Source: Flaccisagitta enflata
Taxonomy: Eukaryota
Reading direction: 5' to 3'
Assembly: GCA_965153355.1 (NCBI GenBank)
Contig: OZ231126.1
Coordinates: 48,856,001 to 48,920,000, forward strand
DNA length: 64,000 bases
Every line of letters begins with the position of its first letter. Positions within the stretch are counted from its first letter, which is position 1. The notes beneath the pieces are model-generated. The model had not been told where the DNA came from. It saw nothing but the letters and a program-made list of their open reading frames with translations, and did not search any database. The translations under genes and the position numbers were made by a program. This document shows, one piece after another, positions 740 through 41,391 of this stretch.

Positions 740-1337
740 TCAATGACCACCTCCAACCCCGTTACACCCTCCACCTCCATCATTTTTGCTTTCGTTTTTT
801 TCGTCATCTCGCCGGTTTCCCTCGCCCCGGTTTCCCTCGCCATCTCTCGCTGCAACAAAGTCTTTCGGCGTGTGATGAGAACAATGCTCACAATCGCTAT
901 CGCTGTCTTCGCTTTCGCTTTCACCAAACTTCAAGGGTTTCTTGTAAACGCAACAGCATTTTGATTTCTGAAAAAAAGGAGAATGAAGATTGCTAAGCCG
1001 ATAAAGTGAGAGTAGTTTTGAAAATGGGCAGAGTAAAAATTTGCACAAACGCTCGCGCTGCTATCCAGAAGAAATTCGCAGGGGCGGTCAACTTTATACA
1101 CGCCTGGAAACTCGTGCTCGCCAGGGTTACCTTTTTGTTCATATGCTCATTGTCGACAGTATCTTCAGTCCACTGCACTCGACGCGAAGGGGGCGGCTTT
1201 TTCAGCTTTAATTTCAACACTGCAGGTGAGGCGGCTCCTTCTCTTCCACCGGACCCTTCGACTTGGAGGACAGTTTGTGACCCGGATGCGCTAGTAGCCA
1301 TAGTTTTGGGAGCGATGCCAGCGTCAGAGTCGGGCAT
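740..1337 (-). CDS. PPP1R11: Protein phosphatase 1 inhibitor-3 (PPP1R11/Ypi1), 144 aa, 2 exons
   Basis: Exons 1337-1131 and 967-740; intron AAG|GTAACC...TTTCAG|AAA, phase 0. The product has the RVxF-type PP1 motif [29 protein letters not shown] followed by an acidic GESESEDSDSDC tract, the hallmark of inhibitor-3. The true start could be the downstream MATSASG. Confidence 0.93.
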
Positions 1338-1558
1338 AACCTCGCATTTAAGTGTTTAGAAATTCAGAAAGCTATGATCCACGCGAGGGTTTTTGTCAAT
1401 TCAGCTTGTTGACCCAATACGGCGGTAAAATTAGTTGATGTGAGCTAAAAAATTAACCATACAAATTTTCCACTGAGGAATGAGTTGGAAACGACGACGG
1501 TAATAGCGGAAAACAAATGACAATTCTACATTTACACTGGAATTGGCAATTCCAAGCG

Positions 1559-4500
1559 TCATGAGATCACATTGTACGCGACGTCTAATTCGAAATGGGT
1601 TTGAATTACGCCTCTGCATACTGGACATCGTCGATCTCTCAGTCGCTCAAGACACGGAGGGCAAAGCGCGGCGTGACGGCAGGGCAACGTCACGACGGTA
1701 ACTGGAAGCGAGAGGCACACGGAACAATCTTCCGATCGTCGCGGAAATGAGGGCGAGGTTGGGGAAGATTCGTGGCTTTTGGGGGAGGCATAGGAAGACG
1801 ATAGATCGAAGTCAGAAAGCGAATCGCTTGACGTAGAGTCCATTAACGTCGACCGTTCATGGCGGTTATTTCCTTCTGCGGCGTCAATACGGGAAGCAGT
1901 CTCCGAGATAGATTCCGTTGTAGCATCCAAAATTCCGGAATCGGCGGAGGTTGGGATCGCAGGTACGTCGTTTAAACATTGTGGACTTTCCAGTTCAGTT
2001 TTTTCAACTTCCGTCGAGTTTTGACGTTGATTCGATCCGATTTCCGCTTTCACAAAAGACGCAGAGCGGTCGGGCGTTTCCTCCTCTTCCTCGGGTGGGG
2101 AACCGGAGGGAATGTAAGGCTGAAGACGGAGCTTCTGATCAGCGTTTGTTACGACGAAGGTCAGCATCGCGTGCGTATCCATTCTTTCTTTCTCTGTCGT
2201 TGGCGAGGTTGGCGCAGCCGTCCCCCGTCCTCCATCGTCATCTGCATCCTGAACATGAAAGACGGTGACTAACGCAACGACGCGCTGCGGTGACGAACCG
2301 TCGAAGTCCCGGATCTCTTCTTTCTTGGCGGCATTCCAGTCTAACCCCAAAACGGCGACCAGAGGATACCGAGTTCGCGGCCAAAGAGGACCTAAGGCAG
2401 CTGGAAAGGGGAAGTATGGGAGAATGAGACGGTGAAAGCGAGGGTAACGGATTTGAAGGCGAGGGGCTGGACGATGAATAGATACAGTAGATCTCGTCTA
2501 GACTTGAGATAACGGGGGCAAGCATTGACAGGAAAAACAAACGGGGTTTTAAAGGTCAGAGTGATATTTGGAAACAGACTTATAAAAAGTGGATGTCTAT
2601 TGCCCACGATAATAGATGTCATGGAAAACATCACGTATCTACCAAAGTATCAATATTGAACAGACCACAAGGATGCTTTATTGCCCACGATAGTTGGTTG
2701 CTTGCAAGAAACACATTTCCACGTGACCCCGCCAGCATCAATATTGCACAGACCATAAAGGATGTTTTTATTGCCCACGATAGCTGCTGTATTAATTTTA
2801 AACACATTTCCCATGTATTCTCATAAAGCACACATTTTTGAGAATTTTTTAGCTTTGAACATTTTTAAAATTACCATATATCCTTTCCCATAGCATGTTC
2901 TGTAAGAATGTCGCTCGCTTATAGGTTGCTAAGGGTTGTCACACATAGATATGCTACCTAGCAACGGCCAAATGAGCGACATTATTACAGAACATACTGT
3001 AGAAAGTTGCAGCAAAATTTGGATTTTTAGCAATGTTCCTTAAAATCTCTCAAAATATTGATATTTTAGCGAGAATACATGGAAATGTGTTTCCATGGCA
3101 ACCAGCATTCATGGGGAATTAAGCATCCTTTCGTCTTTCCACTGTATCAACTTTCAACATAAATCCACTCTTTTGCCACGTAAAGAACCTTGGCCAATAA
3201 TCATGACTCAAGATATTCAGGGCAATAACGCCCAGCAATAACCACTAACTTACCAGAAGTGATGGAACTGTGAGCAATAAACGGCTCTTCGAGACATGGG
3301 TCAACGATACGAGTATCGGTTTCGAGAGCCTCCCCCTCAAACAGCCTTCCCTCCGCCAAATGCGACAAAAAAGAGCGCCACGAGAGAGAGTCGAACCGTT
3401 GGTATAGCGCGTCGATCTCCAAGCCCCATGATAAGCACAGCACGGCCGATGAACGCGATGAGCGAAGGAGAGACACTCCCGAGGAGAAGGAGGAGGCCGC
3501 GGAGGAGGGAGGAGGTAAGGAAAGCGCGAACGGATTATCGATGCCGACGAGGAGAGTTTTAGGCGTTGGATCAAACAAACGCCGAGAGGCAGTGACGCCA
3601 AACCACGCGTCGAATGCGTCAAGATCAGCGTGCCTAGATAGTGGACAGGGACGTTAATATTCAAGGGACACTGAAGAACACTTGCTTACCATTAAAGGCG
3701 GCTCTCGCAGTAGGGAAAAACTGTCGTATAATGCTAGGATTTTCATCTTTTTCATTACATTCGCTTACTACTCGCGGACATGCGAATCAATACGTTGCTG
3801 TGTAGATCGGTCGGTCTGAAATGTTAAGTTGCGAGAGGTTTCTGCATTACTGCCCCTGCCCACCCGTCCGTAACTGGTGGTCCGTGTAGTCGGTCTTGTT
3901 ACGACACAATGAAAATTATCGTGACACTACAGTTTCGCCAGGAGCAAAAAAATGGTCATTGTTTTTACCAAAAACAAATGATTCACCTGATAGTACATGT
4001 CACTTGGGGTAGTTAACAGAAAAAATTAATGCAAAATCTCATCAAACAAAAAAGTTAGCGAGTTTTCCTTTAAAAAAAATCAGGCTTCTCAGGCCTCAAA
4101 TCAGGCTTCTCAGGCCTCAAATCAGGCTTCTCAGGCCTCAAATCAGGCTTCTCAGGCCTCAAATCAGGCTTCTCAGGCCTCAAATCAGGCTTCTCAGGCC
4201 TCAAATCAGGCTTCTCAGGCCTCAAATCAGGCTTCTCAGGCCTCAAATCAGGCTTCTCAGGCCTCAAATCAGGCTTCTCAGGCCTCAAATCAGGCTTCTC
4301 AGGCCTCAAATCAGGCTTCTCAGGCCTCAAATCAGGCTTCTCAGGCCTCAAATCAGGCTTCTCAGGCCTCAAATCAGGCTTCTCAGGCCTCAAATCAGGC
4401 TTCTCAGGCCTCAAATCAGGCTTCTCAGGCCTCAAATCAGGCTTCTCAGGCCTCAAATCAGGCTTCTCAGGCCTCAAATCAGGCTTCTCAGGCCTCAAAT

Positions 4501-5588
4501 CAGGCTTCTCAGGCCTCAAATCAGGCATCTCAGGCCTCAAATCAGGCTTCTCAGGCCTCAAATCAGGCTTCTCAGGCCTCAAATCAGGCTTCTCAGGCCT
4601 CAAATCAGGCTTCTCAGGCCTCAAATCAGGCTTCTCAGGCCTCAAATCAGGCTTCTCAGGCCTCAAATCAGGCTTCTCAGGCCTCAAATCAGGCTTCTCA
4701 GGCCTCAAATCAGGCTTCTCAGGCCTCAAATCAGGCTTCTCAGGCCTCAAATCAGGATTCTCAGGCCTCAAACCAGGATTCTCAGGCCTCAAACCAGGCC
4801 TCTCAGGCCTAAAAACCTCTCAGGCCTCAAATAAGGCCTCTCAGACCTCATAGGCCTATCAGACCTCAGAAGGCCCCTGACCTCAGATTAAGTCTTTCGG
4901 GCCTTTTGTTAGCCCTATCAGGTCTCAAATCAACTAAGCCTCAAATTAGTTCTTTCCCGCATCAAATCAGTCCTCAATAGCCTTTCAGGCCCTTATTCAG
5001 CCCCATGCCTATGATTAGCTTGTTCAGCCTCAAATCTGGCCTCTCAAACCTAAAATCAGGCCTCTCAAACCTAAAATCAGGCCTCTCAAACCTCATATCA
5101 GGCCTCTCAGACCTCAAAATAGCCCCCTCGACCTCAAAATAGCCCCTTCAGACCTCAAATCTTGGAATGAATGGACAGACGAACGAATGAAAGTCCCCGT
5201 GTTCTACAGGACTTCGTCCCCTTCGGGGCCGCTGCCCTGCTTCCCCCCACTCAAATTCACAATAATCAGAGCAGTGCAACGGGTATCGCTGACAACATAT
5301 GGCCCTTGGGCGACCTGTTAATTTGTCTAACAATCGTCTGTTGTGCCGACTGAATGACTGACTGACTGACACTTTGCATACTGAAGCGATGAGATCGAAA
5401 GCTTCAGAACTCGAAAAATCTCACCTCGAAAAAAGGCAAAAGACAGCGATGGCTAGCACTAGGGAGCCGAGCAGTACGTAGAGTTGGCCGGATTCTCCGC
5501 TGCCAAAATCGAAATTGCGCAAATTCTCGACGCCGGCGCTTCCGAGGGAATAAAGACGAAGACCGATTTTCCCCCAAAGCGCCAACAT
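1559..5588 (-). CDS. CGRRF1: Cell growth regulator with RING finger domain 1-like membrane E3 ligase, ~461 aa, 3 exons
   Basis: Exons 5588-5425, 3633-3254 and 2400-1559 (alternative in-frame acceptor at 2391); phases are compatible. It has an N-terminal hydrophobic segment (LYVLLGSLVLAIAVFCLF) and blocks AWFG, IDNPFALSLPPPSSAASSFSSGVSL, LSWGLEIDALY and PRTRYPLVAVL that match CGRRF1 as recalled. C-terminal C3HC4 RING: CSVC..LPCRHAALCPPC..CPVCR. Confidence 0.85.
2485..3190. mobile_element. Truncated copy of a TA-flanked MITE (same family as 62331-62829)
   Basis: Starts TA|CAGTAGATCTCGTCTAGACTTGAGATAACG, identical to the left TIR at 62331, and has an internal hairpin at ~2880-3005. I found no right TIR, so the right end is approximate. 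Confidence 0.65.
3766..3900 (+). mobile_element. Short Helentron-associated (HINE/DINE-1-like) element
   Basis: Degenerate 5' hairpin, GGTC repeats, and a 3' end CCCTGCCCACCCGTCCG...CCGTGTAGTCGGTCTTGTT shared with many other copies in the window. Confidence 0.6.
4077..4800. repeat. 21-bp minisatellite (AAATCAGGCTTCTCAGGCCTC), ~34 near-perfect copies, decaying to ~5160
   Basis: Read directly from the sequence. It produces the spurious (LRPEKPD)n ORF and lies in CGRRF1 intron 1. Confidence 0.97.
4077..5320 (+). mobile_element. HINE-like family A element (5'-truncated) carrying the 21-bp array
   Basis: The 3' module GGACTTCGTCCCCTTCGGGGCCGCTGCCC...GCAACGGGTATCGCTGAC...CTTGGGCGACCTGTT recurs at 5830-6466, 11231-11440, 30182-30792 and 44050-44140, with a matching 5' module at 37023. 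Confidence 0.7.
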
Positions 5589-5699
5589 GTTGGCGAGTTT
5601 AAAGGAGGCTTTCAGACAGCGTGCGGAATAGTATGAAGGAGAAGAATAGGACGAGGAGGACGGCAGCAGTGAAACAAAGGTAAGAAAGGGACTGACAAT

Positions 5700-7980
5700 T
5701 CAATCGGCACCATCGCCGCCAGCTTCGGTAACTTGCTGTTGGTTTTGATCGTCGTCCTCTTCCGCGTCGTTACCAGGGATTGTTCTTTGAATGATCTCTA
5801 ATAATTGTTCAACCTGTAAAGTAAAATGGAATAGCAGCCCAAAGGCAGTAAGTTTTCAGCGGTACCCGTGCCCTGCTTAAGTAGTGTGTGATTTAAGTTG
5901 AGGGGGGAGCAGGGCAGCGGCCCCGAAGGGGACAAAGTCCTGTAGAAAACAGGGGGAATCTGTCCGTCCATCCGTCCGTCCTTTCATCCCCCCGCCCCAT
6001 CCTCAGGGCTTTGTCTCCTTTGGGGCCTATTCTGACCCAAATTCTGCCAAATAGCCCAAATCCAAGCAATATGGCCCAAATCTAAGCAAAATGGCTCAAA
6101 TCCAAGCATAATGGCCTAAATCCAAGCAAAATGGCCCAAATCTGGTCAGAATCTAAGTATTGGAAGCCACAACATAGGTCTAAGGGGCTAAAATGAGGGA
6201 CCTCAGGCCAGAATTGGGCTTTTTTGGCCAGATTTAGGCCATTTTGCTTGGATTTAGGCCATTATGCTTGGATTTGAGCCATTTTGCTTAGATTTAGGCC
6301 ATATTGCTTGGATTTGGGCTATTTGGCAGAATTTGGGTCAGAATAGGCCCCAAAGGAGACAAAGCCCTGAGGATAGGGCGGGGGCAACGGACGAACATAC
6401 GGACGGACGGACAGATTCCCCCTGTATTTTACAGGACTTCGTCCCCTTCGGGGCCGCTGCCCAAAAGTGGGCTACTTGACAGAACTTGCAGAAACTTAAA
6501 TTTAAGTGAAATGAAATTCAACGTCGTCATTACAAACTGGGCCATGTCACACCTGTTCATCGGTAAATCTTTCGACGCTCTCTTCGATGAGAAGTTGAAT
6601 TTCAACTTCGGTGGTGGGTCGCAGATTGAGGCACTGAAGTTTCTCCGCCTTAGTTAATTTGAATGGCGCTACCTCGCGCAAAAATGCGGAAATCGACTTC
6701 GGAAAATCAAGAGTGAAAGAAAATCAGTTCAAGCTTCTCTACAACGGTTCAGTAGGGACTGATGGGGTAAAATGGGTCACAATATCGTTGCGGACGGGTG
6801 GGCTGGGGCATACAACCCCCATCCACACCCTCGCCCACCCCATACACACACTCAAAAACAGACCAGTTCAGCTGCAGCATCAAAAGTGCGCGTTTTCCCA
6901 CTCGATCATTACGGACCGACGGACGGACAAAGCCTCTTATAGAATTGCGTGTCCGCAACTAAAGAGTGGGTGTCCCAATTAACCACTCGTGACCCATTTT
7001 GACCCATCTTGCCCCACTCTACCCCACTCAAGCATGACAGACGCCAAAGGCATCATTTCTCAACGCTAACATCATCAATCCTATCGAATAAAATCTCTCA
7101 TTCATCAACAGTTCAACACGCGACTTATACATTACGTCTGTCAGAGTGCCTAGAAAAGCCCAAATTAAACTTTGCTCCTCAAAAATATTTTTCCTTTGCA
7201 AAAATGCATTCAAATGAGCCATCGCGCGACTATCAAATCAATCAGGAACCATCTTTAGGGTGACTTTGAAGTTTCCATAGATCTGAATGAGAAAGATGAA
7301 ATTTGCATCATGGAAAAATAGATTCCAATGATGATTCAATGGAAACTTCAACCTCACCCTAAAGATGGTTCCCAATTGATTTGAAAGTTGCGCAATGGCT
7401 CATTTGAAAGCATTTTTGCAAAAGAAAAATATTTTTGAGGAGCAAAGTATAATTTTGGCTTTTCTAGGCACTCTGACAGACGTATTATACATCCATTGAA
7501 ATGTAAAACCCATCAAAGTATCCAGCATCAAAGTTTTAGGCGAAGGGCGACCCAACCACTTTTTCAGTCGGGTCAGTTGGTGACAGACTTCTTTTGCTAT
7601 CTCTGCTCACCCGCACTCCACTACTAATAGGCTGATCCGTTCTCCAGTAACGAGCCAAAAGTGATGAGAACCATACCTCTTCACTTTGAAGTTCGCAAGT
7701 AGTTTGTTTCTCGATATATTTGACAGTCTCGTAAGCGATAGTATGCATATTCTGAAGAGGGCCGTCAAGTTTCTTCTTTGCTTCTTTTTCGCGGGGCTTT
7801 GATTGAACTTCACGTATGAAATTATAAACCTGGGGTAGGGCGAAGGGATAACTTGATAGATCCGAAATTTATACACTGTAGAAGAGTTAACAATGATGAG
7901 TGCCGGAACAAATAAGATTTCAACCGGTACAACACCTCAAAATTGGAGAGCATGGCGACGTTCGGTGATTTTACTTCCAT
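5700..7980 (-). CDS. CRCP: RNA polymerase III subunit RPC9 / CGRP-receptor component protein, 151 aa, 4 exons
   Basis: Exons 7980-7936, 7829-7677, 6696-6553 and 5813-5700, all phase 0 GT-AG. Product: [19 protein letters not shown]...[13 protein letters not shown]...[41 protein letters not shown], matching CRCP/RPC9 as recalled. The ORF track misses most of it. Confidence 0.93.
5830..6466 (-). mobile_element. Complete HINE-like family A element with internal palindrome and ~20-bp AAATCCAAGCAATATGGCCC repeats
   Basis: Inverted GGGCAGCGGCCCCGAAGGGGAC blocks at ~5912 and ~6440-6462, plus a GTCC microsatellite; it fills most of CRCP intron 3. Confidence 0.75.
6769..6963 (-). mobile_element. HINE-like family B copy
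   Basis: TTTAGTTGCGGACACGCAATTCTATAAGAGGCTTTGTCCGTCCGTC 5' end and CCCACCCGTCCGCAACGATATTGTGAC 3' part, also seen at 11057-11230, 49165-49322 and 59560-59805. Confidence 0.7.
7135..7482. mobile_element. Foldback MITE, 348 bp, TA target duplication (Tc1/mariner-type)
   Basis: TA|CGTCTGTCAGAGTGCCTAGAAAAGCC ... GGCTTTTCTAGGCACTCTGACAGACG|TA; palindromic over most of its length. Confidence 0.85.
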
Positions 7981-9243
7981 GATGTGTGCAGAATATCTCG
8001 TAGTTAAATCCTATGGCCGCCTGTTCATCGATATCCGTCGCATTGCTTGTTTGGACGTAATTGACGACTGAAGCGTTAAGATCGCAACATATTATCTAAA
8101 TAAGCAGTTGACAGTTTGAGTCCCGCGGACAGAACGAATGCCCAGCTGCAGATGACGATGGCAATAATGAGACAGTTAAGAATCAAGGCAACCGTTCGGG
8201 GCGAGAATTTCAAATACATCACGACATTTAGAAAATCATGGTCGCTCCGATGATGGTACGGAGTAAGATAGTGGGTTGGCACTCAATTAGCCAGGATATC
8301 TTCTAAGCCAGTGTCCTTTGAAATATTAACCGTCCTAAAAGCGCTAAATGAAAAAAAAAATGCGGAATGCAAAGTTGACAATCATTTCCTATCGCGTCTT
8401 ACATGCGCCTCTTAATTACATTCCGCGACTAAAAATGCGGAATGCAAAGTTGACAATCATACAAATAACAAACGTCTGAGAAGCGAATCAAAGGTCGATG
8501 GCACTACATGTATATGTAATTTGGGCGAATGGGAAAGACGAGGAGAGAGGGAGCAAAACGAGGCAGACTATTCGTTGGGTGGTCGGGGTATGAATGGCAC
8601 AAATTGGAGAAAACGCACGAGAATGCGAGAACGCGTAAAAATACCGTTAACTTCCTGGAAGGGAAACACAAATGATACCCTTGGCGTCGATCTTCAAACA
8701 TTTGCTTTACGTCGATTCTGCCATTTAAACAAACAGTTAGCCATAGGCTTGCATCAGGGTGGCGACAAAAACGTACAAAACGTTCTAAGATTTAATTCAA
8801 TCATACAACCGTCAACCGAAATGTCAGCATTATCAATGTCTTGCACTCCTTGTTATCAGGCGACTTAACAAAAGAAATTTTAAACTTAAACTACAAAACG
8901 TGAAAGCAACGGCAAAGATAGTATCATTAGTCATGATAAAACTTGATTGAGAGAGACCTAGGGAATCACCTTTTTCCATAAAGCAGTCTTTCAAGTTTCA
9001 AAGTTCCATATCAACTTTAAATAAAACAAGACGACGTGGGGGATAAGAAAAAAAAGTATCACGCAGTTTTGTCTTTTGTTGGGTATGTATGATCCATTAT
9101 TTCGCGAAGTTGGGCGAGAGAAGAGAAGGAAGAGTTCAGAGTTATTGATTTTTTTCCCGCCCTCCGAGGTCGTTACGTCGTGGTCGACGACGATGACCAC
9201 TCGCCATTAACGACGCGCTGATGACGAAGAGCGATGAGCAGAT

Positions 9244-12200
9244 TTACCGTTGCTCCAGCTTTTCCAGCTCGTCGACATCGTCGGCGTCCAATCTGTGATG
9301 GGAGCAAAAATATGACAAGTTAGGAAACTACTGGCACTTGCAACGGTCTTTAAATGAACTTCGCATTTACGATTGTAGTATCGACCTATCTGCTCACTTA
9401 TCAATAGTCTTTCCGAAGTGCTGCCTAATTTTGTTCAGATCTTCTCTGCTTTTGGGACTGTCCACCATGTTGATAGCGAGACCCTTTTTGCCGAAACGAC
9501 CGGTCCGCCCGATTCGATGGAGATAAGTCTCAAAATCGGGTTCTTTGGTTTCGTGGACGATGGGTAAATCGAAGTTGATCACCACCGTCACCTACGGAGA
9601 AGAAAAATGAAACAGAGGGGGGGGGGGAGAGGAGAAGAGTATTAGAATTTGTGCAGATTGCGACAACACTAGAGACGGAATAACTTTTAGAGCCCACACC
9701 TACCAGACCAAACGGTACCTGATAGAGAATTAACATTTGGTATGACGAGCCTTCAACATATAGGCTGTGGTAAATAGTCAGGGCACTGTAAATTGCGGAT
9801 GGGGCCTTTTGTCATAAGTCAGATCACCGTATTTTGCTTAAGCAAGCGTCAATTTGGTTACATGAGGGCAGTATACTAGTAATACTAGATACACACGGCT
9901 ATTACTAAGTAAAACGCGCACGGCACATGAGCGCATTCGGCGCACGCGCACAGACGCGCTAGTATCGATAGCGTCACACCTGCGCGACGTCGATCCCTCT
10001 CGCAGAAACGTTGGTCGTAATGAGGATCTTTTCGTTTCCGGCTCTGAATCGGTTGATAACGGCGGCGCGCTGTTCGATCGTCAACTCCCCACTCAACATC
10101 GCCACTCGATGACCTTCCTCGCTCAGTTTACCGGCCAACCACGAAGCAGTCTTTCGCGTATGACAAAAGATGATACACTAAAGAAACGAGAAAGGAATCA
10201 GTTCTTTGGAAAAGCCGGTGATGTTTTTGTTCGGTGCCTGTTGTGTTTTTGTTGTTTTGTTGTGGTTCCGCAGTTTTTTTGTGGTTGTTTTTGTTGTCGT
10301 TGAGATTGTGTTGATAATGGCGCCTTGTTGTTGTGGTTTAGTAGTTTTATCTTGCGGTTGTTGTTAAAGTTTTGTTTTAGTTGCGAGTTTGTTCCTGCTT
10401 TGCGATTGTAGTGTTAATGTTGTTTTGGTGCAGTTTTGCGTTTTGCGTTTCGTAGATAATGTTATTCCGTCGATCAGTTTCAGTAGTTTTTTCTTTTGAC
10501 TGATGTGGGAGTTAAGCTGTTGTTGCAATTTTGTGCCATTGGTTTTTTTTTTTTTTTGTTTTTTTTTTTGTCGTGTATCTTTATTCTTCATGTTTTTGTT
10601 GGTGCAGAAACATAACCAAAGCTCTGACTGATAACTTTCTCTTCCTTCATTCATTCATTCATTTATTCACTCTCGTTTGATTGTGCATACTTGACCGATG
10701 GTGATGGTTCCATACAGATTGGCGATGGCATTGTGTTTCTGCGACAGATTTTGACACTCGATGTAGTACTGACGAATGTTGTCCAAGCTTTCCTAAAAGG
10801 GAGTAAATATTCACAAGATATCCGTGAAGGAAGAATGATTATGGTCGATCAAGGGTTTACCTAGACGTGCACTAGTTTTCCTGTAAGAGCGTTTCTCTTC
10901 TCGGCAACTGACCTCTTCACGTCGTAATCGGATAATGAGAGGATCGACGACGACTCTTTCGGCGAAATTCATGACTTGAGGCGTGTAAGTCGCACTGCAA
11001 AAGAGAACAAATTTAGTATAAATCAAGCGCCAAAAATATAGAGAGAAGTCAGGGCATATAAGCGCAAAGGGCGGCGATCCTGAGACTTTTCTTGTAATGG
11101 GCAAGGGCAGCGATAAAAACAAGTGACGCGAAGTCACAATATCGTTGCGGACGGGTGGGCAGGGGCGGCCAACCCCCATCCACACCCAACGCCCCACCCA
11201 ACCCCCCTTCCAACACAGACGCATACACAACTAGTCATCCAAGGATCGCACATGATCAGCGGTACCCGATGCCCTGCTTAGAGTGATCAAGTTAAGTAGT
11301 GGAGTGAGAGCAGGGCAGCGGCCCCAAAGGGCCGATGTCCTGTAGGACACAGGGGTGAATGTTGAGACGTCCAGAGGCGGATTTGAAGTCGGGATGGCAG
11401 AATTTAGTCCAACAGAGCAGATTAGAGGTTTTGGGGGCAGGCTTGAGGCGACGGACGGGCACGGCCAATTATAGAGATGCGAGGACGCATCTAAAAACCT
11501 GAAGAGAAGTTGCTGGCAGTTTTGTTTGTCAAGAAGTCTGTGAAGGCGAATGGATTGATCTTGATGTCCCTGGGTGTCGATCATAACGTCGGCTTCGTCC
11601 AGCACAAAAACCTAACGATGGGGTTGACACGTGATACAACGTTAACCGCTTTCAACATTGCAAACTTCAAAGGCAGCAAAAAACAACTTTAGAACGGCTC
11701 AAACAGGGACGGATTGCTGCAATGCAATGTAGTTTGGAGTGCATTCGCAGGGTCTACGAAGACTACCTTGATTTTCTTCATGTCAAAGAACTTGAATTTT
11801 TGCGCCCAATCGAGCATGGTGCCTGGAGTTCCGATAACGATCTGTTCCGTCAATTTAGTCCCGCGTGGCTGCATGTTCCCTCGCACGGCGTAAGCGATCT
11901 GAAAGACATCATTTGCGGTAACAAAAATATTTTTATTTTAGCATGGCTGGGGCATGAAGTACTTCGGATGCTGCGTTGCGACCATAACCCATCTAACCGG
12001 CCCAGTTTGACTGAATGGTCACCGCAGACATGTAACTACAAATAGTTTATAAGAAAGCATGTTAAATCCGAATTCCGAACCTTGAAATTGGGATAGTATT
12101 TTGCCATTTCTTCGACGACTTTCCCCGTCTGCAACGCCAATTCATACGTAGGCGAAAGTAAAAGCGCCTGTAAGCAAAGAGAGAGGGTCGGTTTTGACAC

Positions 12201-15200
12201 AGGAATTCCTTTCATTTTATCCGAAACAGATTTGGCCAACAATGAATGGGTGACGTTTATTGTAGACTGGTGTCACGCTAAGCCGACCGTGGACGGGATG
12301 AAATTTGTCAATTTTACATGTTTGAAAATTGAACAAAACCATATGTCATCATGTAGCTCACCTATTCTTACATATGAATCCATACTTAGATTTTCTTAAG
12401 TGAGCTCATTTTTCATGCAAATTAGGCTTAAATAGATATTGTTGGCAATTTTATTACTAGAAAATTTAGCTTAATACAATTTAGAAATCAATATGAGAGG
12501 GAAATTCTTATTGATAACATTCAAGCAAACATGTGTGATCATGTTTCTGAAATTTTTTTGAATTCTTTTAGTTTTTTAAGAAAATCTCTATAAGTACTAA
12601 TTCTGGCTGGGTGGGCTATTGGAAGAGAAAAATTTTCCCCATGCTCTTTTTTATGCCAGTGACGAGGAATCTTTAAAAGAAGCTTCAAGCAAAATTTCAA
12701 CCAGATCGGTGAATTATTTAAGAAGTTATGCCATTTTTTCATTTTTTTTTTCTGGTAGGCTGGTTGGTCTGGTTGGACTCCTCAACATTCTCTAGGTCGC
12801 ATCAGAATTTAGGCAAAGGAGTCTCTTGATCAAGATACCAACCATGCAAAATTTCATTGGGCTAACTCAAATAGTTCCTGAGATATGCAAATTTGAATTT
12901 TGAGAAATTTTACCAAATATTAAACTTAAAAGCATCGCGCATTTGTGTGAGAAGCGCTGTGTGGAAACAAAGAATTAACTACGAAGCTTGGTCGGCGAGC
13001 GTTACAATTCAATTCTTATTTTTGTAGTGATCATCTTTGGAATTTCACTGTGACCAAACAATTTGGAGTTAAGAGTTGAAATTTTAGGTGCAAGTACAGA
13101 ATTTGATTTTCTTTCCCATCATGTAGATGAATTTTTCGTCACTTATGTTACTATGCCGTGGCATAGTATGAATCATAGTGTGACACAAGTGTGACAGCTA
13201 CAACAAGGAGCACCTCTGAATTGTAACGCTCCAGGAAAATGATTATTTCTCTAGAATGAAATGGAAAAAATCCTTGAAAATCGGAGGAAAGGTCCTTCAA
13301 CTAGTCCTTAATACAATGAAAAAAGAAAAAATGCTTAATGTTTGAGTAAAGATAAGCCTAGGAAAAAAACTGTCTACCTGACTCATTTTCAGTAAAAAAT
13401 GACAGAAAAATAAAGGGGAAGAGCATCATAATTCAAATTCATTTTTTGTCATCTTACAGTTGAAATATTGAATTCCAACTTTCTACACATATCAATGGAT
13501 TGATAGTGATTGCTTACAAGCTATTGGATGACCCCATTGACATTTTTTGATTGGTTAAACTTGTGTTTTGCTTGCAGGGACAAAATCGGGACAGGCCCAA
13601 ATAGACCCTTCTACCCCTGTTTTGGACCCCATAGGGGCAGTCGGTGTGGCAAAAATTGGTTTAGTATGGCACACCAGATAGGTATGTCACCCAACCTTTG
13701 TGACCTTATGCAATTCAGCAGAAGAAGCGATGACACTTCTACAATGATGGAGAGTCAGGGTTTCTCGCGCGCATAACGAAAATCGGAATTAGCCTGTACA
13801 AGAAAGACGGAGAGAACGAGTACAAAGGGACGGTATGGATCAAACAGAAGTAAAATCCTTTCCCTCAGGCCACCAAGCTTGTCAGTTCAAAATTGCCTGT
13901 GGATACTGAAGGTTGTTGTCGACTCTGCTGAGCATAGCGACGGAGAAGGCTGCAGTCTTGCCAGTTCCTGATTGAGATTGGGCGATCATGTTGATCGGTG
14001 GATCGGCCAACAAGGAAGGGATCGCCGTCTCCTGAATCTTGGACGGATGATTAAACCCCATGGCAAAGATTCCTGCAACAAGGTACAACAAGGACAACAC
14101 TTACTAGTCGCGTGCGGTCGTTAAGACCATAAGACCAAAAGACTAAAAGACTAAAAGACTATAAGACCAAAAGACCAAAAGACTAAAAGACTAAAAGACT
14201 AAAAGACTAAAAGACTAAAAGACTAAAAGACTAAAAGACTAAAAGACCAAATGTAAATTGACTTAAAATAACTGAAAATGACTTTAAATGACTTAAAATG
14301 ACTTAGAATTACGTAAAACGGCGAAAAAAAGCTAAGGGTTACCGACAGACGGACCGACCAACCGACCGACAGACGGACAGAGTGGGTTGTAGAGTCGCGT
14401 GCACGCGACTAAAAAGCTTCAAAATTACAGTCCCCGACTGGGGACTGCAATTTTTGAAGCTTTCTCGTTGCGTAAACGCAACTCGAGAAGATACACTACA
14501 AGACAGCAATTTCAAGAAAAAAAGAAAAAAATAACAAATATTGTTTAAATGATGACAAAACTTGATAATGATAAAAATAGTGGATGACGATGATGACAAC
14601 AACGAATGATAATGACAACAGAAATCTAAGAAAAAAATGTTTAAAAAATTTTTCAAAAAAAAAAAAAGAAATAAAAAAAATTTTTCAAAAAAAAAAAAAA
14701 ATTTTCAAAAAAATTTAAAAAAAAAAATTCAAAAAAATAATTTAAAAAAAAAAGTTTAAAAAAAAAATTTTTCGAAAAATTTTCAAAAATTTTTTTAAAA
14801 AATTTCAAAAAAAAAATTCAAAAAAAAAAAAAAAATCAAAAAATTTTTCCAAAAAATTTTTTTCAAAAAATTTTCAAAAGATTTCCAAAAATTTTTAAAA
14901 AATTTTCAAAAAAAAATTTTCAAAAAAATTTAGTAATTGAAGATGATTACAGTAATGGATGATCATAACAGTAGGTGAGGATGATGACAGTAGATGAAGA
15001 TGATGACAGTAAATAAAGATGATGACAGTGGTTAAAGATGATGACAGTGGTTGAAGATGATGACAGTGGTTGAAGATGATGACAGTGGTTGAAGATGATG
15101 ACAGTGGTTGAAGATGATGACAGTGGTTGAAGATGATGACAGTGGTTGAAGATGATGACAGTGGTTGAAGATGATGACAGTAGTTGAAGATGATGACAGT

Positions 15201-17191: not shown

Positions 17192-17497
17192 TCTATTGAA
17201 CCGTTTTTACTGCAATAGTGTTTATCTGTTGATGATATGGTCTCTTAGTTGTGGACTAATGTTTTCAGGATCTTCTGACGAAACAAATACCTACACAGAC
17301 GGGTCGTGAACAGGTAATTGAAATGAGGAGTGAATAAAATAAAAAAGCTAGAACTAAAAACTTTGGGTCAACAATACTCATAAGCGAAACGGCTAAAATC
17401 TTTGTTATTGAATAATCCACAGTTTTACACAACGAGAATCCATAAAAAAACTGATAATATAGTCAACGGATTTGAACCAGATCAGGAAGAGAAACCA

Positions 17498-22251: not shown

Positions 22252-22787
22252 GACGACGTCCGTGTACAGAGAGAGAGCGAAAGTTGCGTCAGTGTTGAGC
22301 TTGGCCAATCATTTCACCCGCCCTCAATCTTCAACCGCTTGGGCTAAAAAATGTCAGAACTTGTATAATGTGGACATCAGCAACTGTGTCTGAAAAAAAT
22401 TAAAGAAATAACAAATAAATCGCGATATGAATTTCCATATTCACGAATCGGAATTTGTAAAATACTAGAAGTAAATAATGCATCCGGGCCTGTTACCACA
22501 ACAGAAATGTTAATAAATAAATTCAATAAAAAATACAATTCAATAGATTAGCGACTAGGAAGAAGCAACAACCTCGTACTAAAATCGGCAACATTATGGG
22601 CTAGCGTACCGCCCACCATTGCAACTCTGCAACTCTTGGAGAAAACCAGTCAAGTTTGCGGCGATCACCGTCACCTTCAAATGGCATTGTCTGTACATCA
22701 TTGCATTATAATTGGAGAATGACGCAAATACAGTCCCAGTTCACAAAGTCGATTCCAAGTCTCTCCGCCAGGAGCAAGCAGTAAGCT

Positions 22788-33353
<10,566 letters not shown>

Positions 33354-33644
33354 GTTCACTTTCGTAGACCACGGATAGCGGGTTATTAGTTAGGACCATG
33401 AACATAGCGTTCCATTCCCTTTAGGCCAACGCGGCATAAGATTCTCGTGTGTTACGTTCACGATTTCTCATATCACTTGTAGTCTTGGAACTAAACATAT
33501 GTGTCGGATTCAACAAAACTTTCCAGTTTTCATCCTTGGAAAACAAACGAAGGTAAAACTCCACTGCAATGAAACATGAAAAGAGCCATGCAATTTCTGC
33601 TTTGGGCGCGAATCAAATAGGAAACGATGCCCAAGCTTAACAGA

Positions 33645-36600
33645 TTATGTTTCCCCTTCCTCCTTTGGCGGACATTGCTCCACGTTATCTGTTCCCCCAC
33701 CGACTGCCGGTTTGAAAAATCCAAACTCATCTTTAGATTTCTCGCCCTCCTTCGTCGCATCATCTCCCTTCTTTTCCGACATCCCTTCCCGAGTTTCAAC
33801 AGATTCCTCCTTCTCCGAGTCTTTCTCGACTTTTAAAACGCCTTCGTTATCTTCCGTCCTTCGATCTCCCTTAACCTCACTAACCGCGTCACCTCCGCCA
33901 AACATTTGCAAATTATACTTTTTATTAGCCTTGTATTGTTTCAACAGAGCCAAACAGGCGGTTTTCCCAAGAATTTCGACAGCGATGGTAAAATGCGGAT
34001 CGTCGTAATCGACTCGATTGCGATCATCGAGGCCTTGGACCACGTTTGAGACTTGGCGCAGCGTCGTGTGGCGATCGAGACTTCCGTTATGGCGCGCCTT
34101 GAAATCCACGTTGAAAGTCCGCGTTTGGGGAGGCGAAGCGGGAACAGCGGGTGAGGACTCTTTCCTGACCGCATCGTCGACGTCCTCATTCCCCACTGCT
34201 TCATCGACGTCCTCATTTCCCACGTCGCTTTTTCCGTTTTTATCCAACTCGTCCAGGCCCTCGAGGGAATCGTCTTTGGCGTTGGTTACTTGGTCGTCCA
34301 CCTGAGACGTAATCTTCACGGTCCCGAGGAATGGCACGAGGCACTGAGAGGCGAGCTGGTTCAACTTGTCCTGATCCACTGAGAGGGAAGGTTGAAAAGA
34401 GAAAAGTCGATGAAGGGGCGCGGGGGAAGCAGCACGCGAGAGTTAAAGCCGCAGAAATTGAATCAAGTGCGAGAGAGCATCACAGGGGTGTGGATAGTAC
34501 TTTCAAACCATTACCTTTTACCGTACACATGACAGGATAATAATAAAATGAAGTAGAATATCGGATATTTGTCTAACTGGATGATAAATGATTATTTACA
34601 TTAGTAACGAAACTGATTTGGCAAAAACCATCATCACTTGGAAATACGGTGGAGCTCACTACCACCCAATCACTCAAATTGAGCATTCTAACAAAACTCG
34701 TCTCCAACGTTTTCTCATGTTCCATCTACATAAATTCCATTTCCATAATAAGCAAATCATAACCTTAGCCTTATCTAGTTGCAAAATCATTCCAAACCGG
34801 AACTAGCCACCACATTATGATTGTTCATGTTTAGTCATGGAATAAAACTGAATTTTAACGATGTTTTCACTTCACAACGTGGTGCCAAGATCAAAATCAT
34901 ATTGGTTTGACAAGAGGATTGAACTTGAATTTTGCTACTGGAATACGAAAACTGCATGGATAGTTATACTTTCATCCAAACGCCCCAAATGTGCCTGGCC
35001 TAAAAAGTGTTAGTGTGCTTATGTGATGCCTCAGCCCCCCCCCCCCACTGGTCAGCAATGGGATATATCATCCTCAATAACTTCCATCAGGACAGATAAT
35101 TCACAGAATTTCATGGGTAGCAAAAGGATTCATTAAATGACTCAATTTGCGAACCAAAAGGTCATTCAATGTTTTACATTACGGAGTGCGGGCCAAGCTT
35201 GGGAGATTTGAAGGTATTGCTTTTAAAAACAGGCATTTTTTCTCATTTTTCTTGCGGTGCTATTTCTATGAAAACATTATTTCCGAAGCAAACTGAGCTA
35301 TTTCTCAGTTAGTCTAGCCCATTTGCTCCATTTTGATACCAAGTTGACATATCTTTGATGAGGTTGACAATTTTTTAAGGGCTTTTGAAGATTTCACGCA
35401 TCAATTTGCTCAAACATGGACCCTTTTTAAATTTACCAATTTTTCACCATAAGTAGTCCCGATCAAGGGGTGAACATAGGTCAACCCATTTCAGCTCGGA
35501 GTCATCACTTTCATAGGCAAAAAATGCATTGAAAATATTTGTTTTTAATTCCAAAACCTCCTCCTGGTCTTTGATTTTAAAACCCTAGAGCGTGGATTTT
35601 GGTTTTAAAGGTCTTGATTTTAAAACCCTAAAGTGGGGATATTGGCTTTAAAGGTCTTGATTTTAATAACTTTTGTTGAATATTTGCTCACTCATCTTTG
35701 CTGTATTTTAGATAGTATGTATGCCCCTTCATGGGTACAAGGTGCATATACCTGGATGGAATTGACTCTTTTTATGTTAGTATGTTTGAAACAGAACAGT
35801 GAGAAAATTTTTGAACAATTTTTAAAAACCCGAGTTTGAGCTTTATGGTGGTTGTGTTCAGCCATCTTAAAGATGTTTTCCTTCCAAGTAGCAGGTTTTG
35901 CCCTTTAAGTCTTCCAAAATTAGTGAAATCACACTAACGTTTAAAAGAAACCCCAAACTTTTGCTTTTATTGACTTACAAGAACATAGCATACTACACAA
36001 ATTTAAACAAGCCCAAGAGGGCAACAGTCGCGTGCGTCTGGATATGACAAACAAAACTTAATAACGACTGTCCAATAAAAAACGTAATAACGTATCTCCA
36101 ATAAAAAGTTGACAAAATACCCAAAACACCCAAATATACCCAAAAATACCCAAAAAAAAAACCTAAACATACCCAAAAATACTCAAAAACACTCAAAAAT
36201 ACCCAAAAATATCTGAAAGTACCCTTATGTACCTATAATAACTTGAGTATCCTTAAGTACCCTGAAGTACCCTAAAGTACCCTGAAGTACCGTGAAATAG
36301 CCTAGTGTACCCAAAATAACCTTAAAATACCATAAAAAATCATAATTTTAAAAATGTGACGGATCTACCTACCGACTGACCTACCGACTGACACGGTAAG
36401 GTCTTGAGTCGCGTGAACGCGACTAAAAAAAAGACGCACTTTTGAATGGTTGATTTTGCCATTAAAAATTTTAAAAAACTTATTAAAATCTTAGACCATT
36501 CTGAAGCCCTTGAAACCCTCTTTCATTTGGCGCCAATCTGGTATCTCTATCTTTTTTTGTTTGGAAATGGCATTAGTTTGAATAAAAATATTGATAAATT

Positions 36601-39600
36601 TTTTTTTTGCAGTCCCTATGAAAAAGATGCAATTCAGCAAAATGGTGTCTCACTTTAGAGAGCTCAAGCTCCTAAACCGTTAAAGATACAGATCTGGGAT
36701 TGGTCTAGAATAAAAGATGATTTGAAAATCTTGTTGCAAAAATGGTCAAAATTTTGCTAAAAATCTCCATTCTTAAGCTTGTTAGGTAACATGGATATCA
36801 AGGAAGGTGGACGGGTAAGTGGGAAAGGGGAATGCCTCATGGGGTGGGGGCAAGGGGACTTATATGACCAAAATTGAGGTCCTGAGGGAGGTGGTTGTAA
36901 GAAATGACAAAAATTAAAAATGTTGATTTTTTTTGGTCAAAATGTGGATGATTTTATCAAAAAAAAATAATTGTAAATTGGAATCATGGGTGCCAAATAA
37001 TGCCAAATAACAGCCCTAGTGGTTTTTGGGCAGCGGCCCCAAAGGGGACGAAGTCCTTTAGAGAGATGAATTTTATGAATTTCAAAATTTCAGAATTCTA
37101 GAAATTTTAGATTTTAGAATTTTAAAGTTTTAGAATTTTAGAATCTGGGCTTTAAGAAAAAGTGCTTATTCTGAATCACAAGATTTTACCGTATAAAACT
37201 TTTTGAAGGTGAATGGGAGAAGTTCATTTAAGGGTGCAATATTTCATGACCTGTTGATTTCAATCTCTAATCTCACTTTAGCCTTACTCTTTTTATATTT
37301 TTTATTCTGTTTACATCTGTAAGTCTTTCTGTTATTCAGTCTTTTTTACTTTTTTTTTTGTCATCTTTTTTTCTCTATTTCAACTTTTTTTTTCTTTCTC
37401 CCTCTTCTTTTTCATTTTTTCACTTTTTTTTTTTAAATTTTCCTCTTACCTCTATTTTTTCTTTTTTCTTTGGTGTCCCGACAACTTTGGTGTCCCGACA
37501 ACAGGGACTTCCATGGAAGTCCCGGAAGTCCCTTGTCCTACGCCGCTGCCTGTAGGACCCAGGGTTAAATTTCCAGACGTCCCTCTGTCCATCTGTCTGT
37601 GTGTCCGTCTGTCTGTCCTTCCGTCCTTCCATCCATCTGTCTGTCCTTCCGTCCTTCCATCCGTCTGTCTGTCCTTCCGTCTGCCATCCGTCTATCCATC
37701 CGTCCGTCCATCCGTCCGTCCGTCCATCCGAAATCGATTTCTTATACATCATTTGATGTGAAACACCTTGTTTTTGGCACCCATGATTCCAATTTACAGT
37801 TGTTTTTAGTCGCGGACACGCAACTCTAGAATTTTCTGTGTCGGTTGGTTTAAGGTCGGTCACATCACATTTCTGTTTTAAACTCCTGCCCACCCATCTG
37901 CTACTAAGGGGTAGTGTATATGGCCTTGTTTTGGCTGAAATCATCAAGTAGCAACATATTTTGACCAATAAAATTAACATTTTGAATTTTTGTCATTTTT
38001 TGCAATCACCTCCAGGAGGACCTCAAATTCGGCTACTTTAACCCTCTTGCCCCCACCCCATGAGGCACTCCCCTTGCCCACTTACAACATGACCTTCCTT
38101 GAAATCTCTGCTACCCAACAAGCCTAAGTATGAAGATTTTTGGCAAAATTATAACCATTTTTGCAACACTCTATTATGAGGGTTATGCATCAAAAAGGCC
38201 TCTATATGGCCCTGACAGGCCAACTGCAAAAAAGTGGTGTGGTCTAAAGAATCCGTGCAGATGATTGACTGTGTCATACAAACCTCATAATGTGTCCAAA
38301 CTTTCTACACAGGCTTTTTTTGCATTTTTGGGAAATCCTTAACAAGCCAAAAGACCAGCCTTCTTAACACAACCAGCCCTCTTAAAAGTGGAGTAGCGGG
38401 TAGCACCACTACTCAGAAAAGGATATGTGCTGGAAGGTTTTGACAGAAGATAAAGAGGAAGAAGAAAAAGTCAAAAGGATCGCACATGGGAGCGGTACCC
38501 GATGGAGAGAAAGAGAGAGAGAGAAGGATAGATGAGAGAGAGAGAGAGAGAGAGACTTGGAAGGGAAGGGGTGAGTGGGAGAGTTTTGGAAGGGGCAAAG
38601 GAGAAAGAAGAAGAAGAGAGAAAGAAAAATAAGAAGAAGAAGCAGAAATAGGGAAGAACAAGTACCCCGGGGGTACAACGATGCGTCCACATGCTTCTTA
38701 GCTTGTTAAGAATGATGCAATATTGCATCAATCATGTGGAATGATGCAATGACTCAATATTTTGGGTGATTTTATTGAGTTTTCTACTCGTGTCCACGGA
38801 CCGACCAACCGACGGACAAAGCCTCTTATAGAGATGCGTGGACGCATCTAAAAAGAAAAAGAAAAGGAACATAAGAAAGAATAGGAGGAGAAAAAAGAAA
38901 CAAGGCCGGATACAGGGCTACCCCAGTCGCGTGCAGGTGGGCAGGGGCCATAATTGAGGTCACTCCATAATTTCGGAAGACTTGAAGTGCAAAATCTGCT
39001 ACTCGGAAGGAAAACATTTTTAAGATGGCTGAACACAACCACCATAAAGCTCAAACTCGGGGTTTTAAAAATTGGTCAAAAAGTTTCTCACTGTTCTGTT
39101 TCATATTATACAAACATAAAAATAGTAAATTCCATCCAGGTACAGGCACCTTGTACCCATGAAGGGGCATACATACTATCTAAAATACAGCAAAGATGAG
39201 TGAGCAAATATTCAACAAAAAGTTCTTAAAATCAAGACCTATAAAACCAAAATCCACGCTCTAGGGTTTTAAAATCAAGACCTTTAAAACCAAAATCCAC
39301 GCTCTAGGGTTTTAAAATCAAAGACCAGGAGGAGGTTTTGGAATTAAAAACCAATATTTTCAATGCATTTTTTGCCTATGTAAGTGATGACTCCGAGCTG
39401 AAATGAGTTGACCTATGTTCACCCCTTGATGGGGACTACTTATGGTAAAAAATTGGTGAATTTAAAAAGGGTCCATGTTTGAGCAAATTGATGGGTGAAA
39501 TCTTCAAAAGCCCTTTAAAAATTGTCAGCCTCATCAAAAATATGTCAACTTGGTATCAAAATGGAGCAAATGGGCTAGACTAACTGAGAAATAGCTCAGT

Positions 39601-41069
39601 TTGCTTCGGAAGTAATGTTTTCATAGAAATAGCACCGCAAGAAAAATGAGAAAAAATGCCTGTTTTTAAAAGCAATACCTTCAAATCTCCCAAGCTGTCA
39701 GACTGCTATATTATGAATTTTTTTTTGGTAAAATGTTGATCTTAAGTGTGACTTTTCAAAATTCCTTTTGAAAAAGTAAATTTAATCCAGCCTGTCTCAT
39801 CCGGCATTTTTTCAAATGGTTAAAATCACCTCAACCCAAGACTGAGGTTACCTTTACAGGTGCCGATTATGGGCATCATTCTCATAATATTCCTTGAACC
39901 CCTTTTGACGCCGCTTTTGATGTCATCCAAGATAGCGTCCATGATAGACAAGTTACCAGTGGCGCCCAGTTTCGTACGGATAAACAGCACGTTTTTTATC
40001 CCCGTTGTCACCTTGACGCAAACATAAATAAGTCATCAAGAATTAAGTACGTATGTAAGTATTAATTATTAGTGCGCTAGTATTAGATTTTTCCTCGGCA
40101 GATCAAGTAGGCCGCTATTAGTAATCCAAAACCATGCACGTGAAACAGTAAAACCAAGAGCGGTTCCCCTTTCAGACCGACTGAGAATACATAATTTCTC
40201 TGTTAGACAAAAATACACTAAAGTTGAAGATTTAGAGACCAACAAACCAAGAGTAAGAGACGATTGAGTCGCATTCACGCAACCGAAAATGAAGTATTAT
40301 TATTAGGTATCACCAGAGGTTAAAAAGTATGTCACCTGTTGAAAATCTCTCTCCTTCGTGGTGGTCTTTGATTTAATTCCTTCGACCTCTTTTGCGAACG
40401 CCGCATCGAAATCCTCTTCGATTTCGTCCCCTGCGAACGCAAAAAGAAAAAGCATTCCAGTAATGAAACTAAGCGTGCAGTAAGCGTGCAATGACCGACT
40501 TGATAGATAACTGGGAAGATAAGACAAGATCAGTCAAAACAAGACCAGATACACGGCGACCCCAGTCGCGTTCGGAAGGGCAAGGGCTGTATATATGGTC
40601 ACATTTGGTATATATGGTCACATTTGAGCAGTGGTGAGGTCAAAGACCGCAAAAACAAAACTAAAATGCTTGCTACCGACCAGCCGACGGACGGACAAAG
40701 CGCACACGGGATGTTGAGTCGCGTAGCACGCGATTAAAATTGATCCGTTCATAACTTTTTTATTTCAAGAATCTAGTTTATAACATCATCTGATACAACT
40801 GAAGCTCATTAGAGCGATAACCTGTCACCTGAGTCATGATCACGCAGGTCTTCTTCCGTCCTATTAACCAATCCGAGCTTATCAGCGTAGTGATTGAGAA
40901 GGTCATAGCATTCGTTTAGGCATCTTTTTTCGTTGTAGTTGCAGGTGACGAGGAAACCCGTGACACCCGGCTCAAGGTGGTTTGATCTCTTCCTCTTCGC
41001 CGAGAAATATTTCTTCTTGTCATTGAATTTGCGCTTAGCTCCTTGTAAGTCACTGCTGTCAGCCGACAT
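33645..41069 (-). CDS. THUMPD1: THUMP domain protein 1 (Tan1-like adaptor for tRNA ac4C), 409 aa, 4 coding exons
   Basis: Exons 41069-40829, 40430-40336, 40011-39852 and 34378-33645 (1230 nt). Motifs: LEPGVTGFLVTCNYNEKRCLNECYDLLNHYAD, FQQVTTGIKNVLFIRT, RMMPIIGTCK, FKARHN, NRVDYDDPHFTIAVEILG, KKYNL. An acceptor TTTTTCTCAG|C lies immediately before the ATG. Confidence 0.92.
35196..39696. repeat. Large inverted repeat: ~730-bp arms (35196-35925 / 38965-39696) around a 3-kb nest of other elements
   Basis: AGCTTGGGAGATTTGAAGGTATTGCTTTTAAAAACAGGC... is the reverse complement of ...GCCTGTTTTTAAAAGCAATACCTTCAAATCTCCCAAGCT. A second, more diverged inner pair lies at 36733-36960 / 37935-38167. Confidence 0.88.
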
Positions 41070-41391
41070 GCTGAGAAAAACAGAGATGAGGAAATAATTA
41101 CCGATGGCGATGATTTACAATTTTACTTTCTTATAGTACACAATCACCCCAATGACCATACGAACAGACTATGTTTTCTGAGTCACTTGGGTCTCGGTCG
41201 TTGGACTCATTCACTTTTTCTTGCTTTCAGAGAAGCCATGAATGGCACTCGTTCGTGGGCGTGGAACGTATCAAATTTGAGCCCAATTGCAATTGAACGC
41301 ATGTGAATATAATCATGCGTAATAGAAACAATTACCAACTGCATAGGCAAGCCGATGATAATATTAAATTATAAATTTTGTAATGGTTTCA

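Follow-up and report, generated by a model that had tools for sequence, protein, structure and literature searches.

Do seven genes that follow one another on one strand of an animal genome form a single transcription unit, resolved into separate messages by spliced-leader trans-splicing, or are they transcribed separately? The question is raised by a stretch of 64,000 nucleotides (nt) of contig OZ231126.1 from Flaccisagitta enflata (assembly GCA_965153355.1, positions 48,856,001 to 48,920,000, forward strand), hereafter called the window, which is animal DNA with long, repeat-rich introns. We consider it probable that a leader-resolved operon covers most or all of the seven genes, the most likely arrangement being that THUMPD1, MLYCD, an orphan gene, DDX19, CRCP, CGRRF1 and PPP1R11 constitute a single spliced-leader operon, or else two to three operons next to one another. 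A sequence-only reading of the window had proposed a polycistronic unit of ~41 kb. The parts of that proposal which held are a leader on the first gene, transcription of the mapped spacers at about exon depth and a bridge between CRCP and CGRRF1; leader addition at genes 2–7 and a single promoter, together with the exact poly(A) and acceptor sites, we infer. In the proposed mechanism, RNA polymerase II would start upstream of THUMPD1, at ~41.4–41.5 kb, and transcribe through the cluster. Each upstream message would then be cleaved and polyadenylated inside the spacer, and a leader of ~33 nt (of the GGAAGC...TTTAAA type) would be added at an AG acceptor just downstream.

The genes, in the order in which they would be transcribed, are the following.

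33645..41069, minus strand: THUMPD1; exons 41069-40829, 40430-40336, 40011-39852 and 34378-33645; 409 amino acids (aa), with a THUMP domain
22788..33353, minus strand: MLYCD (malonyl-CoA decarboxylase), with MCD_N and MCD domains
17498..22251, minus strand: gene 3, an orphan rich in Ser, Lys and Glu; a large exon from 22251 to ~19650 and a last exon at ~17963-17498
9244..17191, minus strand: DDX19/Dbp5 helicase; last coding exon from 9292, stop 9246-9244
5700..7980, minus strand: CRCP, RNA polymerase III subunit RPC9; ATG 7980, last exon 5813-5700
1559..5588, minus strand: CGRRF1 (RING); exon 1 5588-5425, exon 2 3633 to ~3254, stop 1561-1559
740..1337, minus strand: PPP1R11 (inhibitor-3); exons 1337-1131 and 967-740; 144 aa

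Their order and common strand, as first read from the sequence, agree with our gene models and with the protein matches. Of the 152 minus-strand open reading frame (ORF) pieces of at least 50 aa in 1–42000, 140 were searched with Pfam, 12 overlapping alternative-frame pieces having been dropped by hand; the families found were PPI_Ypi1 at 743-1355, the RING family zf-C3HC4_3 at 1562-2497, RNA_pol_Rpb4 at 6550-6723, DEAD and Helicase_C at 9397-14100, MCD and MCD_N at 23001-29748, and THUMP at 33648-34442. The best matches in a PDB sequence search were DDX19B, RPC9 (=CRCP) and PPP1R11, and the name CGRRF1 is taken from the annotation of the RING-domain matches. The THUMPD1 model is identical at 402 of its 409 residues to P0019, the protein of a 1,346-nt assembled transcript, and its intron 39851-34379, at 5.47 kb, accounts for the introns of up to 5.5 kb that had been noticed.

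The leader itself can be recognised at the first gene, where the THUMPD1 ATG is preceded, at a distance of 1 nt, by a strong acceptor (ctctgtttttctcAG); the window reads there ttttctcAG/C-ATG (the slash marking the junction).

41071..41090, minus strand: polypyrimidine tract and AG acceptor (AG 41072-41071), leader trans-splice site, 1 nt before the THUMPD1 ATG

The protein P0176 (423 aa, from a 2,023-nt metatranscriptome contig) clusters with P0019 at 90% identity, shows 96.7% identity to the THUMPD1 of the window and carries an N-terminal extension, MGEANFYHFTYLN, ahead of MSADSS. Among the chaetognath leaders given in Table 3 of PMC2481426 (Marlétaz et al. 2008) are the F. enflata forms SL3.1/3.2. 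When these are followed by C and ATG and translated in the frame of the ATG, they give EANFYYFTCLNM, in which 10 of the 12 residues match P0176, and four other leader forms compared with the extension in the same way gave 3–6 identities. The extension is not genomic read-through, since the window's own upstream frame reads GNYFLISVFLS. The leading Met-Gly of P0176 could, we presume, derive from a template-switch oligonucleotide ending in ATGGG. From these sequences we conclude that THUMPD1 is trans-spliced at 41071, with a leader close to F. enflata form 3. As the extension corresponds to a translated leader joined at the AG/C-ATG of the window, the source organism is a chaetognath, and its lineage uses spliced-leader trans-splicing. 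Protein databases can thus yield a spliced leader, in the form of a translated N-terminal extension, and with it both the phylum and the trans-splice site can be identified with no need of reads. A copepod origin (with a leader of 46 nt, PMC4664967) was also weighed and set aside, as the translated leader agrees with the chaetognath form and no copepod is found among the seven named THUMPD1 relatives. These seven, out of the top 10 matches, are from sea urchin, brachiopod, horseshoe crab, abalone, amphioxus, crinoid and fish, with 32–42% identity; such a mixture of slow-evolving phyla is typical of a phylum that lacks an annotated genome. The leader-gene pattern GGAAGC...TTAAAGT has no match in the window, and neither Rfam (at the gathering threshold) nor ARAGORN finds anything in it.

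The transcripts of THUMPD1 also give an indication of where its message ends. The other three full-length contigs measure 1,346–1,382 nt for a coding sequence (CDS) of 1,230 nt, which leaves 116–152 nt for both untranslated regions (UTRs). Such monocistronic lengths place the 3' end inside the first spacer, where the message would end close to the two acceptor-like AGs (33564 and 33535). The 2,023-nt contig of P0176, by comparison, extends roughly 700 nt past the THUMPD1 stop. The C-terminus of P0176 differs from that of the model (…AVCSPTRGAMSAKGGRGNIIC), as it is read from another frame of the same DNA and ends at the TAA 33637-33635; this is a population indel variant.

The six stop-to-ATG gaps were recomputed from our own gene models and came out identical to the lengths reported before (291, 536, 306, 1263, 111 and 221 nt).

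33354..33644, minus strand: spacer 1, 291 nt; acceptor-like AGs at 33564 and 33535
22252..22787, minus strand: spacer 2, 536 nt; strong acceptor tttaatttttttcAG at 22390
17192..17497, minus strand: spacer 3, 306 nt; donor-like AG/GTATTT at 17291
7981..9243, minus strand: spacer 4, 1263 nt; essentially all DDX19 3'UTR
5589..5699, minus strand: spacer 5, 111 nt; 73% pyrimidine, no stop in the CRCP/CGRRF1 frame
1338..1558, minus strand: spacer 6, 221 nt; acceptor-like ttttttAG at 1445

The co-oriented packing of the genes, with spacers of 111–1263 nt against introns of up to 5.5 kb, argues for an operon, and the acceptor-like sites on which the sequence-only reading had drawn (22390, 1445 and 33535) were located again. 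Candidate acceptors for the downstream genes are 33564 and 33535 (MLYCD), 22390 and 22345 (orphan gene), 17213 and 17193 (DDX19), 8021 and 8011 (CRCP), ~5609 (CGRRF1), and 1445 and 1341 (PPP1R11). Measured by the criterion used for Paraspadella gotoi (less than 250 bp from gene end to gene end, and at least one leader), the cluster has THUMPD1 with a leader and two CDS-to-CDS gaps below 250 nt. The spacers were also described as being without transposable elements, and a self-BLAST agrees with this: it flags 60 of the 2,728 spacer nt compared with 8,204 of 37,602 nt elsewhere in 740-41069, and these 60 nt come from a 30-nt sequence duplicated locally within spacer 4. The introns have 44 repeat segments in ~28 kb, a density at which the spacers would be expected to contain ~4.3. 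In base composition the spacers look like exons, as their observed/expected CpG ratio (1.19) is near the exon value (1.30); that of introns is 0.78 and that of repeat-flagged intron 0.58 (all for 740-41069). This pattern is the reverse of what gene-body methylation would produce, and resembles what transposon-targeted methylation would leave. For P. gotoi, PMC12460157 describes DNA methylation on transposons and not on gene bodies.

RNA evidence was taken from three metatranscriptome contig sets (X6, X7 and X9) and from one raw poly(A) run (X16), and was mapped over 4840-24000; PPP1R11 and the 3' parts of CGRRF1 lie outside this stretch, as do spacers 1 and 6. The locus is partly present in 15 of the 16 listed public runs, of which two are labelled as one organism and the others are metagenomes and metatranscriptomes of marine or seawater origin. 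Spacer 4, between DDX19 and CRCP, is covered at depths of 14.5–18, 19–23 and 6.6–7.8 in X6, X7 and X9, respectively, the DDX19 exons at 20.4, 20.7 and 8.1, and intron-only bins at 0–4 in the same three sets. One X9 contig (record 14) shows the DDX19 3'UTR (8407-9292) spliced to 9398-9522, and the coverage of the spacer falls only at ~8036, 56 nt before the CRCP ATG. Within the same 3'UTR, at 8350-8460, a direct repeat of ~30 nt (atgattgtcaactttgcattccgcattttt) occurs twice, 75 nt apart. Contigs break between its two copies and the X6 depth falls just downstream, which may reflect an alternative poly(A) site.

The other mapped spacers are reached by contigs as well. Record 13 of X9 (445 nt, depth 6.3) spans 5424-5811, that is the last exon of CRCP, the whole of spacer 5 and exon 1 of CGRRF1. 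Its ends carry 49 and 11 unaligned letters and lie 2 nt from the acceptor at 5813 and 1 nt from the donor at 5425, and the simplest reading is an RNA that is spliced on both sides and continuous across the 111-nt spacer. In the DNA, the CRCP stop (TGA 5702-5700) is in frame with the CGRRF1 ATG at 5588, and the 37 spacer codons between them contain no stop, so that a single TGA separates the two ORFs. Record 17 of X9 reaches 22370, in spacer 2. Record 9 of X7 spans 17291-17800, includes the 3'UTR of the orphan gene and ends 100 nt before the DDX19 ATG, at the AG/GTATTT of spacer 3, with 21 unaligned letters beyond it.

Polyadenylation and promoter signals were compared between the spacers and the two ends of the cluster. 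It had been observed that the five short spacers lack AATAAA on the coding strand, and we find none in all six; ATTAAA occurs once on this strand, at 8796 in the 1263-nt spacer. The only coding-strand AATAAA near a gene end is that of the last gene.

697..702, minus strand: AATAAA, 38 nt after the PPP1R11 stop

The promoter-like motif noticed upstream of the first gene could be recovered too: CCAAT/ATTGG occurs there 5 times in 531 nt (9.4 per kb). The spacers have 5 occurrences in 2,728 nt (1.8 per kb), which is the background rate, and the enrichment is therefore found only upstream of THUMPD1.

41455..41498, minus strand: two inverted CCAAT boxes (ATTGG at 41498 and 41459), a motif match marking a candidate promoter region

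Several observations weigh against a leader-resolved operon or limit what has been said in its favour. Four of the six CDS-to-CDS gaps exceed the 250 bp used for P. gotoi, a distance which is measured between gene ends, UTRs included. The absence of AATAAA is suggestive and not significant alone; it is weak evidence because only ~1.5 would be expected in 2,728 nt (from a background of 22 per 40,330 nt). The raw poly(A) run X16 has zero depth on all exons of 4840-24000. No leader-like sequence is present among the 24 of 475 loose-end rows listed, and no leader was seen at any downstream gene. Record 13 is no proof of one molecule, since de Bruijn contigs can merge two overlapping transcripts, and at 6.3 its depth matches that of mature messages nearby in X9, which a short-lived precursor explains no better than overlapping UTRs or a stable dicistronic RNA would. 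The steady-state depth moreover differs between genes (in X7, ~20 for DDX19 and 1.8 for the CRCP bin). Of the 4,124 reads that X16 contributes, 4,119 fit only partly and all lie on repeats, and the run is uninformative on starts, ends and leaders. It amounts to 30 Gb, shares its study and organism label with the DNA run that best matches the locus, and has hundreds of partial repeat matches at ~5222, 5926, 6447, 6911-6943, 11469-11497 and 19091-19124; either its label, its tissue or the read filter is odd.

A leader on the first gene alone is likewise not proof of an operon, because about half of chaetognath genes are trans-spliced and only 18% are operonic (10,197 of 21,072 genes trans-spliced and 18% in leader-resolved operons in P. 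gotoi, according to PMC12460157). The same figures favour a dense tandem cluster of separately transcribed genes, with promoters in or near the spacers or in the 3' end of the upstream gene, UTRs that abut or overlap, and leaders added to individual outrons. Such an arrangement would also account for the several-fold differences in depth between neighbouring genes and for the bridging contigs, as contigs can chain overlapping transcripts, and spacers 2 and 4 (536 and 1263 nt), with one or two CCAAT-type motifs each, could hold a promoter. We nevertheless regard it as unlikely: the gaps of 111, 221, 291 and 306 nt must already accommodate a 3'UTR and a 5'UTR, the mapped spacers are transcribed throughout at exon-level depth, and there is no motif enrichment in them. 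On its upstream side, in addition, the contig that contains CGRRF1 exon 1 continues into sequence spliced to the last CRCP exon and not into the collinear intron. That co-orientation arose by chance, or that the cluster is an artefact of the gene models or of the assembly, we hold to be highly improbable. Seven genes on one strand would be expected about once in 64 and many windows were scanned, and the first exon of MLYCD comes from sequence reading only; five of the six spacers, however, rest on gene ends backed by homology or RNA joints, and the DNA of the locus is present in several independent runs.

A further possibility leaves the common transcript in place and changes its fate. Part of the cluster could consist of stable spliced dicistronic messages that are not fully resolved by leaders, namely CRCP-CGRRF1 and perhaps the orphan gene with DDX19 by way of a small intron in the spacer; we regard this as distinctly unlikely. 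A marginally lower probability is given to stable read-through or dicistronic messages that do without leader resolution at some pairs (CRCP-CGRRF1, possibly the orphan gene and DDX19), the second ORF being translated by re-initiation, leaky scanning or stop-codon read-through. The depth of the bridging contig, similar to that of mature messages, the shared frame of the CRCP TGA and the CGRRF1 ATG across 37 open codons, and the end of record 9 at a donor-like AG/GT in spacer 3, followed by 21 more letters, would all be accounted for in this way. An open stretch of 37 codons in a sequence with 73% pyrimidine, in one of three frames, is on the other hand not rare by chance (~0.06–0.1), and the lineage has an efficient leader system. 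If dicistronic messages of this kind were real, they would represent a second, leader-independent route to downstream cistrons in a 41-kb chaetognath operon with long introns.

The leader-resolved operon, which we prefer, has precedents. Operons resolved by leader trans-splicing, which the sequence-only reading had taken as established in chaetognaths, have indeed been published for Spadella and for Paraspadella gotoi. The cluster resembles these (the RPS14-PCNA operon of Spadella cephaloptera and the P. gotoi set) in its co-oriented housekeeping genes, in its very short or absent untranscribed gaps and in the GGAAGC...TTTAAA leader. In PMC12460157, the longest P. gotoi operon has nine genes, operonic genes are biased towards housekeeping functions and no operon-specific leader is reported; PMC2481426 gives 3 nt between the RPS14 poly(A) site and the PCNA acceptor. 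The cluster differs from the known chaetognath operons in its introns of up to 5.5 kb, in its span of 41 kb, which is due to the long introns that its genes keep, and in one gap of 1.26 kb filled by 3'UTR. The SL2 operons of Caenorhabditis elegans have the polycistronic precursor and the 3' cleavage with trans-splicing that are proposed here, and share the housekeeping bias of the cluster. They use, however, a dedicated SL2 and a gap of ~100 nt after AAUAAA, whereas no AATAAA is found in any spacer of the cluster and no operon-specific leader is reported for chaetognaths (PMC12460157). In Ciona and Oikopleura, as in chaetognaths, a single leader class serves both operonic and monocistronic genes and the poly(A) site often abuts the acceptor, but tunicate operons are mostly dicistronic, with gaps of ~0–60 nt and compact genes (PMC7986045). 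The units of trypanosomatids share the pyrimidine-rich intergenic tracts and differ in comprising tens to hundreds of intron-poor genes and in being the only way in which genes are expressed. In these organisms, polyadenylation of the upstream message is coupled to trans-splicing of the downstream one without AAUAAA, which is a possible likeness.

The cluster thus probably belongs to an already known kind, the chaetognath spliced-leader operon. It is real but expected, since chaetognath operons of up to nine genes have already been published; operons and leaders of this phylum have been documented since 2008, and on a genome-wide scale since 2025, and no new question is opened. What the locus offers is a concrete and well-delimited candidate operon of seven genes in a pelagic chaetognath, near the largest size reported for the phylum, in which the genes have retained repeat-filled introns of several kilobases and the spacers between cistrons have remained short and almost free of repeats.

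The models of the individual genes are backed to different degrees. For MLYCD, the introns 23218-23484 and 23717-23923 appear as GT..AG joints in metatranscriptome contigs from three runs, and the first exon (33353-33291, ATG 33353), which is basic and presequence-like and ends at GTGTGT, was read from the DNA alone. In DDX19, five introns between 9293 and 11498 are confirmed as GT..AG joints in metatranscriptome contigs, and the ATG at 17191 and the first three exons come from sequence reading. A tandem duplication at 16930-17156 covers the 3' part of DDX19 exon 1 together with the donor and the start of the intron. Its second copy, with ttgcAG before it and GTATTG after it, would form a 23-nt exon that shifts the frame if used. 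The phase of CGRRF1 exon 1 fits exon 2 at 3633, and a relative, P0005, joins exons 2 and 3. A metagenome-contig scan with PPP1R11 exon 1 returned 12 distant relatives (33–57% identity) and two 14-residue matches at 86–93%, and no mRNA of the source species was found in it. The orphan gene had been called chromo-like, a label that does not hold: neither a chromo or chromo-shadow domain nor any other Pfam family is detected at E≤0.01 or at E≤5, its 889-aa exon has no homologue among 8,000 scored candidates, and a single-sequence fold is of low confidence and unusable (mean predicted local distance difference test score, pLDDT, 54.9). It is nonetheless expressed, with contigs in X6, X7 and X9. 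The human THUMPD1, MLYCD and DDX19A/B genes are all on chromosome 16, and the adjacency of the three in the window may have survived from an old linkage group.

Beyond the cluster, a second Pfam scan took in 89 pieces, of which 78 came from the two strands of 41–64 kb and 11 were among the 54 plus-strand ORFs that lie below 41 kb. It found no transposon protein and gave the following neighbours.

44493-46275, plus strand: gene with an alanyl-tRNA synthetase (AlaRS) editing domain (tRNA_SAD), by Pfam
52221-53533, plus strand: glutathione S-transferase (GST), by Pfam
56008-61061, minus strand: GH18 chitinase with CBM14, by Pfam
63364-63765, minus strand: a further CBM14 gene, by Pfam

The cluster is bounded upstream by plus-strand genes, and other gene pairs of the window are ~2–3 kb apart. 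The chitinase and the CBM14 gene are adjacent on the same strand and, unlike the genes of the cluster, have ends that lie kilobases apart. Three tandem arrays are present: a 21-nt unit in 37 copies at 4077-4850, in intron 1 of CGRRF1; an (AG)n-rich array of 860 nt at 24068-24927, in an MLYCD intron; and a TTTC-type array of 2.1 kb at 41862-43995, between THUMPD1 and the next gene.

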